This document shows positions 53,552 through 54,618 of a stretch of 58,298 bases of DNA, one piece after another. The position numbers were made by a program, and so were the translations under genes. The stretch spans positions 1 to 58,298 of the forward strand of contig URXH01000001.1 in the NCBI GenBank assembly GCA_900551675.1. Reading direction: 5' to 3'. This stretch comes from an uncultured bacterium (GTDB lineage Bacteria; Cyanobacteriota; Vampirovibrionia; Gastranaerophilales; Gastranaerophilaceae). Within the stretch, counting starts at the first letter, position 1. Each line of letters starts with the position of its first letter. The notes under the pieces were generated by a model. It was not told where the DNA came from, ran no database searches, and worked only from the letters and a program-made list of their open reading frames with translations.

Positions 53552-54618
53552 CTACCACGGGTAATCAGACCTTATTTCCCAGCCGTCAGCCATTATCAAG
53601 GCTGCACACCACATACCGCGCCCCTGCTTGTTACACTGATAATTGTTAGCACTGGGACCGTCCCGAAATTCATCTCGGGTGCGAACAACAGCAGAAGACT
53701 CATTATCATCATAAGACATTGGTCTTACTCCTTTTTCGGTAACTGACAACGAAAATAAATCTCTTCCAAATTTATTAGGACGCTTAAATCCGTTTAAATC
53801 TATTGTAAAACTCTTTCTCTTTATACTAAGAGCTGAAGTTGAAGGAATTATACTATAAGCAAAAATTTGAGTTCCTGATGGCAAAGTTATTATTTCCGCA
53901 TTATCATACAAATGGATAAGCCCTTTTTCTTCAGCACCTGATGTCCCGTAATATTTTATTCCATGCTGTCTTGCTGTACCGACAGTCGTGTTGGATATTT
54001 CCATATAAGATGATAAGTACTTTTTGAAAAAATCGGAGCTGCTTATAGAATAATCCCATAAAGAAGGATCACCGTATTCAAATTTCGCCATTTCCGCTGC
54101 CTGTGATAATTCCGAATATACTTTCTTTAACTGAGTTACGGTCTGTTTTTTCTGATAATTAGTTATCAAGGAAGGCATTGTCATTGCAGCAACTACACCG
54201 ATAATGCCAAGGGTTATTAAAACTTCTGCCAGAGTAAATGCAACTCTACGAATATCGTTAAAGTGGACTACGTGCGTAGCACCTTCTGCCAGAGTAAACG
54301 CGGATTTTTTATGAGGTGAATAAGTCGGTTTCGCACCATCTACTTTGGGTGAGGGATGATTTACTGCCATAGTGCCATAGTATCTTAGCAGCTGAATAAA
54401 TACATGCCATCTAATGACACCATCACCAAAAAGAACAAGAGATTGAATATTAAGACCTGTCATAGCGCGCATGGTGCGCGATCTTTTTAGGATAAATTTC
54501 AGATTGCGTAATAAATGCACAATGACATTAATGTAAACAACCTGACTTCCTGACTTCTTGCCCTCTGCTAACTGAGAGTGCCCCCCCCCCGAACTCTTGA
54601 ATAATCTGCTCTTTTCAT
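53552..54618 (-). CDS. type IV prepilin-like gene, phase OFF (G10; G11 restores the frame)
   Basis: ATG 54618 with SD GAGGAG reads MKRADYSRVRGGGTLS*; adding one G joins it to the 53552..54520 ORF (RRVA|FTLAEVLITLG...CAALIMADGWEIRSDYPW); promoter TTGAAA-N17-TATATT at 54662-54690. Confidence 0.85.
54223..54298. repeat. 16-bp direct repeat duplicating the FTLAE codons
   Basis: CTTCTGCCAGAGTAAA at 54223-54238 and 54283-54298. Confidence 0.85.
54541..54556. repeat. 8-bp tandem duplication in the pilin leader
   Basis: CCTGACTT x2. Confidence 0.7.
54581..54590 (-). repeat. poly-G10 tract (coding strand)
   Basis: C10 on + strand. Confidence 0.9.

Follow-up and report, generated by a model that had tools for sequence, protein, structure and literature searches.

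In the opa genes of Neisseria, the repeat lies within the region that encodes the leader peptide, and in pilC, a pilus-associated gene of the same genus, a G run early in the coding region, within the signal peptide, sets the reading frame. The phasomes of Campylobacter and Neisseria, in turn, embrace many gene classes, with a broad spread of run lengths and a mixture of ON and OFF states. Passages of one report describe ~11 opa genes that undergo stochastic changes in expression (PMC3745409), and two others deal with the phasomes of Campylobacter jejuni and Neisseria meningitidis, with tens of intragenic G/C homopolymer runs in a small, low-G+C genome (PMC8355987) and with 115 genes (PMC5084427). 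Homopolymer runs are also found at conserved frameshifts followed by an intact downstream frame, and excerpts from two papers describe the rescue of such genes by slippage in IS elements and in tssM of Citrobacter rodentium (PMC1088944; PMC4256274).

The Gastranaerophilales are common, uncultured gut relatives of the cyanobacteria, and almost nothing is known of their surface biology. A search for literature that combines Melainabacteria or Gastranaerophilales with homopolymer runs or phase variation found no report, though supplementary files may bear on the subject; the main text of the paper on the MEL.A1 genome (PMC3787301) mentions neither pilin, pili, homopolymer, frameshift and phase variation nor pseudogene, with supplements that may again be relevant, and sections of PMC5877343 name type IV pilus genes only. 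Here I will discuss a window, meaning the whole stretch of 58,298 nucleotides that was analysed (contig URXH01000001.1 of GenBank assembly GCA_900551675.1, an uncultured member of the Gastranaerophilaceae), together with the genome assembly from which it comes (1.93 Mb in 152 contigs, 35.0% G+C). The focal gene, on the minus strand of this window, is one of dozens of such genes in the genome of this gut Melainabacterium, and in nearly all of them a run of exactly ten G or C leaves the gene one base out of frame.

The focal gene starts at an ATG (54618-54616) that is followed by nine codons and then by exactly ten G, and in the frame as assembled it yields a 16-residue peptide that ends at the TAG at 54570-54568. 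The reading frame beginning at 54580 runs through 342 open codons to the stop at 53554-53552, and since the ATG lies 98 nt from the GTG at 54520, one G more or two G fewer fuse both parts into 355 codons. A first-pass annotation of the window had described exactly this, a gene thrown out of frame by ten G and restored by eleven or by eight, and every detail of it is correct, including the intact downstream gene with its 342 open codons past the run and the in-frame paralog at 16605, which carries eleven G (16569-16579) and is open for 347 codons. What the annotation missed is the size of the family and the near-universal OFF-by-one state at a fixed length of ten. The features of the locus and the other run-bearing genes of the window are collected in Table 1.

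Table 1. Coordinates of the focal locus and of the other run-gated genes in the window (position 1 is the first letter of the window).
Feature	Positions	Strand	Remarks
Promoter-like site	54662..54690	minus	TTGAAA, 17 nt spacer, TG-extended TATATT; 10/12 matches, consensus match only
Shine-Dalgarno site	54628..54635	minus	AAGAGGAG, 9 nt 5' of the ATG; read directly
Frame as assembled (G10), OFF product	54568..54618	minus	ATG, 16 codons, then TAG
Gate, run of ten G	54581..54590	minus	C10 on the plus strand; flanked by TC and CA on the G strand
Leader, 114 codons, read in the frame opened by an added G	54239..54580	minus	Repeat modules common to 3-16 other loci of the genome
Imperfect inverted repeat of ~70 nt, within a leader module	54458..54527	minus	22 of 25 predicted pairs, 0 compensatory changes
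Degenerate first copy of the cleavage motif (AFTLAEGATHV)	54269..54301	minus	No hydrophobic stretch after it
Mature pilin-like protein	53555..54238	minus	Begins FTLAEVLITLGIIGVVAAMT; N-terminal methylation motif and DUF6613
Stop codon	53552..53554	minus	Read from the sequence
G11 paralog, in frame, 347 codons	15562..16605 (run 16569-16579)	minus	Leader aligns with the focal leader at the DNA level
G11 paralog, in frame	22060..22800 (run 22761-22771)	minus	Ordinary leader of 21 residues, Gly before FTLAE
G10 paralog, in frame at ten	38083..38949 (run 38867-38876)	minus	Frame analysis of the window
Further ten-base run with Shine-Dalgarno site and ATG, at the contig edge	29..38	minus	Gene body leaves the window

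The protein encoded beyond the run carries FTLAE followed by the hydrophobic stretch VLITLGIIGVVAAMT, which together make up the N-terminal motif of type IV pilins, in which G|F-x-x-x-E precedes ~20 hydrophobic residues. PF20318 (DUF6613) scores 32.1 bits in the focal gene and 62.7 in the paralog at 16605, against a gathering cut-off of 24.3, PF07963 reaches 17.8 bits in the focal gene, below its cut-off of 21.2, and 25.4 in that paralog, and TIGR02532 is above its cut-off in three paralogs of the window, the focal gene not being listed. Profile searches match the N-terminal helix of the focal protein weakly to pilin and pseudopilin models, and its predicted structure (pLDDT 81.9) has an N-terminal helix of 53 residues (7-59) followed by strands that form a sheet. 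A Foldseek search of this model against the PDB gave no match at E 0.001 or better; in a VIA-align search, pilins and pseudopilins occupy 10 of the top 12 rows, with a best Z of only 5.5, for 6xxe_A (rmsd 4.3 over 105 aligned residues). The short basic leader with Gly at -1 that marks prepilins is not found in the focal gene, which has Ala at -1 and whose leader would be 133 residues long, far longer than known prepilin leaders. Both Gly at -1 and a short leader are present in the short-leader paralogs, such as the gene with the run at 22761, where the run sits inside an ordinary prepilin leader and encodes three Gly. Furthermore, contig C104 of the genome has an open frame of 344 residues that encodes a prepilin peptidase (PF01478 at 38.8 bits, above the cut-off). 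The degenerate copy of the cleavage motif (AFTLAEGATHV...) that lies ~20 codons 5' of the real one has ~6-8 copies in the genome, and a degenerate duplicate of AFTLAE is also found in relatives from other genera.

Across the genome there are 67 G/C runs of 8-12 bases, and 49 of these (73%) are exactly ten long; by length, the counts drop from 55 runs of six to 3 of seven and rise again to the 49 of ten. This is far more than chance would give, as base composition predicts ~0.1 runs of ten or more G/C in 1.93 Mb by my own arithmetic. At least 78 pilin-like ORFs emerged from a motif scan; of these, 30 have a run within 1 kb upstream (with the frame open from run to motif in 29 of the 30), 26 sit at contig edges with the leader cut off, and 22 have no run, most of these with ordinary short leaders. 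When a gated gene is required to have a Shine-Dalgarno site and an ATG ahead of a run that is followed by 60 or more open codons, and a gene with two runs is entered once, the genome has 32: at a run length of ten, 26 need one more base, 1 needs one fewer and 1 is in frame, and the remaining 4 have eleven bases and are in frame, these being all of the 11-mers. Frame state and run length therefore go together in the 32 genes. The G strand is the coding strand in 22 of them and the C strand in 10, the ATG lies 8-10 codons from the start of the run in 26, and the genome has genes for MutS and MutL. As separate observations, ten-base runs also stand early in, or gate, large genes of 409-531 codons (contig C63:2840-2849 and, in the related genome MEL.A1, 96548, 439977 and 1042197) that have no pilin motif and are in some cases in frame at ten, and one leader on contig C146 (1050-1073) holds a C8 and a G10 run six bases apart.

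The same layout is found in relatives. MEL.A1 (CP017245.1) is a closed genome of the same genus as the host genome, and its 39 run-gated genes comprise 27 ten-mers that need one more base and 5 nine-mers in the same phase class, 2 ten-mers that need one fewer, and 3 ten-mers and 2 eleven-mers that are in frame; at six other loci of the genus all six runs are ten-mers in need of one more base. An order-wide sample, in which 80 loci from gut MAGs of Candidatus Gastranaerophilales/Melainabacteria gave 36 runs with an open leader, contains 30 ten-mers (20 need one more base, 4 need one fewer and 6 are in frame), two eleven-mers that need one fewer and two nine-mers that need one more. At the syntenic site next to dapA, sampled at 29 loci of the genus, a run-gated gene is present at 13: ten are ten-mers lacking one base (one of which runs off its contig), 2 are nine-mers and 1 is in frame with only 76 open codons, and an eleven-mer occurs at this site in none of these 13 run-gated genes of other species. 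Exact ten-mers are present in all 28 genomes of the genus that were searched, with 5 to 169 per genome, they recur in some other genera of the family, and outside the family there are 0-3 per genome; over the 19 genomes of the genus covered by both counts, my sums are 1061 ten-mers and 87 eleven-mers, or ~12 to 1. The out-of-frame arrangement is thus conserved across species, as it is in programmed frameshifting. Same-species orthologs were sought in JGI metagenomes, and the 25 loci returned include none, the best identity being 76%; an apparent pair with twelve and nine G (L202 and L203) was rejected, as one of the two contigs begins inside the run.

The strand on which the runs lie was also followed. 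In MEL.A1 the G runs are on the plus strand from ~1.36 Mb through the numbering origin to 0.24 Mb and, with a single exception, on the minus strand between 0.26 and 1.23 Mb, a pattern that tracks gene direction and resembles two replichores. A rule by which replication polarity fixes the G strand was dropped, because the flips near 0.25 and 1.3 Mb in MEL.A1 follow gene direction and because, in the host genome, the G run falls on the G-rich strand in only 3 of 8 genes that read the C strand.

Now considering these frame relations, the focal gene is probably, with appreciable room for doubt, a slipped-strand contingency locus within a very large family that is OFF by default. Translation would start at ATG 54618 and would have to pass through the G run; at ten G, the ribosome would meet a stop after 16 codons, and at eleven it would read a long, disposable leader and then the prepilin, which the prepilin peptidase would cut before FTLAE, even though the leader to be removed is so long. 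Slipped-strand mispairing at replication would alter the length of the run, at the focal gene as elsewhere, and at a rate that would turn single members ON in a minority of cells, so that the consensus of a population would show almost every member OFF by one base, and each cell would express only a few members because most sit at ten. The number of units within the reading frame does set the frame, as in contingency loci generally, and run lengths of 9, 10 and 11 in MEL.A1 and of 8-12 across the order occur among paralogs and orthologs. The short-leader members, in which an ordinary prepilin leader has the run inside it, also argue for this reading, as do the prepilin peptidase of the genome and in-frame alleles of similar 5' modules among public gene calls. 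Within the window, the run at 38867-38876 has lost two bases in samples X2 and X11; in X1, a C-to-T substitution at 38868 (within the stretch 38864-38876) makes the uninterrupted run shorter and keeps the frame. At 54581-54590, no length variation was seen across three assemblies compared as contigs: the run is ten in the window, in the contig of run X1, which represents a second strain (353 nt bridging the run and reaching dapA, with 8 differences and no gap, and at least one bridging contig among those of X1, X2, X9 and X11), and in the sister species (L172). The reversible switch proposed in the first-pass annotation is the likeliest reading of this run, yet all three of its known copies have the same length.

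Two features sit poorly with passive slippage. The length distribution is far sharper than a freely slipping run predicts, with some three quarters of all runs or more being ten long irrespective of the in-frame length, and ten remains the commonest length even where it is the in-frame one; the fixed length and the conserved context of the runs (described below) are not accounted for by passive slippage, and the placement of most genes such that ten is one base short is likewise not accounted for by a contingency locus. The presence of MutS and MutL, and in the focal gene the Ala at -1 and the very long leader, also speak against the contingency reading. It is this near-universal OFF-by-one state at a fixed ten that keeps alive a reading in terms of programmed recoding, in which the ten-base run is a conserved slippery site at which, in a fraction of events, RNA polymerase adds a base or the ribosome slips back by one, the nominally OFF DNA is expressed constitutively at a low level, and the 11-mers in the DNA are high-expression variants. 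The reading gains from the persistence of OFF-by-one at ten (6/6 loci of the genus, 27/39 genes of MEL.A1, 20/30 order-wide ten-mers and 10/13 syntenic genes), from the ~12 to 1 excess of ten-mers over eleven-mers, from intact downstream ORFs whose mature part is under purifying selection, and from precedent, as passages of two reports establish transcriptional slippage that rescues frameshifted bacterial genes (PMC4256274; PMC1088944). However, no conserved helix was found 5-9 nt after the run, the usual place for a stimulatory structure, and the sole structure starts ~53 nt away, without compensatory changes; the copy of the inverted repeat that follows the focal run folds no more stably than shuffled sequences (z 0.67), the core hairpin of this repeat (54458..54527) was detected on the plus strand, and a search of 54150-54800 gave no Rfam family at E up to 1. 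Moreover, the layout is common to subfamilies with unrelated downstream sequence, five MEL.A1 genes have nine bases and so lie two steps off with their ORFs intact, and the slippage cases in the relevant sections of PMC1088944 concern A or T runs, its main text giving no match to the phrases on G or C runs that were sought there. Because no stimulatory RNA structure was found near the run and the slippage literature consulted deals with A or T runs, recoding ranks second, and I regard it as doubtful.

The context of the runs invites a further proposal. On the G strand, C stands on both sides of 53 of 63 runs, as compared with 41 of 460 runs of 5-7 bases; TC precedes and CA follows the run in 34 of 63, and AGCT lies 7-12 nt past it in 35 of 57 (my own count from the listing), often as CAGCTG in genes that read the G strand and as AAGCTT in genes that read the C strand. 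The TC, CA and AGCT context keeps to the G strand independently of coding direction and includes 54576-54594 of the window. Tentatively, and with a good deal of scepticism, one may picture the ten-base run as part of a length-controlled DNA element of ~25 bp (TC, G10, CA and AGCT 7-12 nt on) that is served by a dedicated process. Such a process would keep dozens to more than 100 pilin genes per genome exactly one base away from expression and free a few of them at a time; it might be transcriptional slippage by one base, tuned to a run that matches the RNA-DNA hybrid in length, or a factor by which run length is edited or reset. An inversion between a G10 and a C10 run was considered as a route to exchanging 5' modules and set aside: on paper it only joins promoters to promoters in genes of opposite type, and no data call for such an exchange.

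Could the true run be eleven and the gene ON, with short-read pipelines undercounting G? The evidence consists of contigs, many of which break at or near runs, and two contigs of the genome open with 32 and 28 G (C14:1-32 and C83:14-41), stretches that are typical of two-colour chemistry and that probably arose in sequencing, without belonging to the genome. Against this, the same genome assembly contains 11- and 12-mers, and the four 11-mers linked to genes are precisely those in frame; some genes are in frame at ten, and public gene calls include in-frame alleles of similar 5' modules (P0004 and P0066); and the pattern repeats both in MEL.A1, a closed genome, and in MAGs with contig names of SPAdes, MEGAHIT and IDBA style. 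An assembly or sequencing artefact is therefore improbable as the source of the pattern. As a separate matter, many contigs of the genome, and the metagenome contig L203, start or stop at or just past such runs, and it follows that the family is under-assembled, with leaders often cut off in public MAGs.

The leader bears on whether the pilin could be made without passing through the run. Across genes, the run lies 7 to 276 codons from the motif, and long leaders have no stop in 2141 codons, as compared with 138-162 stops in each of the other five frames, although the zero comes from genes chosen for an open frame and the unbiased count is the 29 of 30 given above. Substitutions between the leaders of paralogs number 572:515:519 over codon positions 1:2:3, and non-synonymous to synonymous changes 986:311. 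The leader is thus kept readable and is not conserved as a protein, as would suit a spacer that is cut off; because it is stop-free and yet free of amino-acid constraint, it is maintained only to be read through, and expression must therefore run through the run. Leaders (54239-54580 and those of its paralogs) are mosaics of short repeat modules, such as HPELVSGSH...MLKQVQHD, PSPIGEGV and ILRYYGTKAV, whose translations recur across paralogs; of the modules in the focal gene, the one at the start occurs 7 times in the genome and the run with its next 140 nt 12-16 times, and the pilin N-terminus has ~56 copies. The leader modules of MEL.A1 differ from those of the host genome, and their recurrence across the paralogs of one genome, with others in MEL.A1, suggests concerted evolution within each genome.

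These numbers weigh on the idea that an internal start makes the pilin and that what lies upstream (ATG, run and short ORF) serves as a leader or regulatory element or is a remnant in decay. Some members do have an internal start with a ribosome site near the motif (C146, with MKKR-AFTLAE, is one), in four genes that read the C strand a TTG or ATG immediately precedes the run and is in frame at ten, and public gene calls, examined for 21 of 120 listed homologs, begin at the first Met inside the repeat module in 8 and read through the run from an upstream start in 2. However, none of the four in-frame candidates of the focal gene (GTG 54520 and three ATG) has a ribosome site, which upholds the first-pass annotation on the GTG; in 6 of 27 OFF genes the frame offers neither ATG, GTG nor TTG ahead of the motif, and only 6 of 27 have an in-frame start with a ribosome site. 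An internal start would also leave the 2141 stop-free codons and the perfectly in-frame 11-mers unexplained, and I consider it quite improbable for the focal gene.

That the gene is a plain pseudogene, left by an irreversible frameshift, finds some comfort in the out-of-frame consensus and the uniform focal run and is nevertheless most improbable, because the mature part is under purifying selection (1276:188:4441 substitutions at codon positions 1:2:3 over the first 60 mature codons, and non-synonymous to synonymous changes of 1177:3897, in paralog comparisons), 342 codons are open after the run, and the out-of-frame layout is kept in paralogs and orthologs, dozens of which are in the same state at the same place in the gene, so that the earlier statement that this is no pseudogene stands on selection and on a layout kept in 26 of 32 genes and at the syntenic site.

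If the contingency reading is true, ~4% of a small genome would encode a repertoire of pilin-like proteins, with only a few of them displayed by each cell, and the family would be among the largest repeat-gated gene families known, in a commensal and not a pathogen. Because gene callers use internal starts or call such genes broken, no public MAG describes the family and its leaders correctly. Furthermore, a fixed length of ten, a default OFF state and flanks that do not depend on orientation provide a test bed for the question of whether run length is set by more than chance slippage.

How, then, does this family compare with the systems with which I began? Like opa, it is a family of surface proteins scattered over the chromosome, of which each copy would be switched singly and a subset shown per cell; unlike opa, it has a mononucleotide run in place of a pentamer repeat, a pilin-like protein in place of an outer-membrane barrel, at least 30 gated genes per genome in place of ~11, and nearly all of these stand one step from ON at one length. 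As in pilC, an early G run sets the frame, whereas pilC is one or two genes and not a pilin subunit with a class III signal. With the phasomes it shares tens of intragenic G/C runs in a gut or mucosal bacterium whose genome is small and low in G+C, and it departs from them in that here the runs belong mostly to one gene family, at the same position in the gene, and 73% (49 of 67) are exactly ten; it departs from the Campylobacter phasome also in having the mismatch repair genes for MutS and MutL, which Campylobacter is not known to have. The slippage rescue cases, in contrast, use A or T runs and give a fixed product ratio, whereas the present runs are G/C. In working principle, opa and pilC are the closest, and in genome-wide scale the Campylobacter and Neisseria phasomes, and this family differs from all of them in the class of its protein, in the number of gated genes per family, in a fixed length with default OFF, in its long leaders, open yet unconstrained, and in the motif that flanks its runs.
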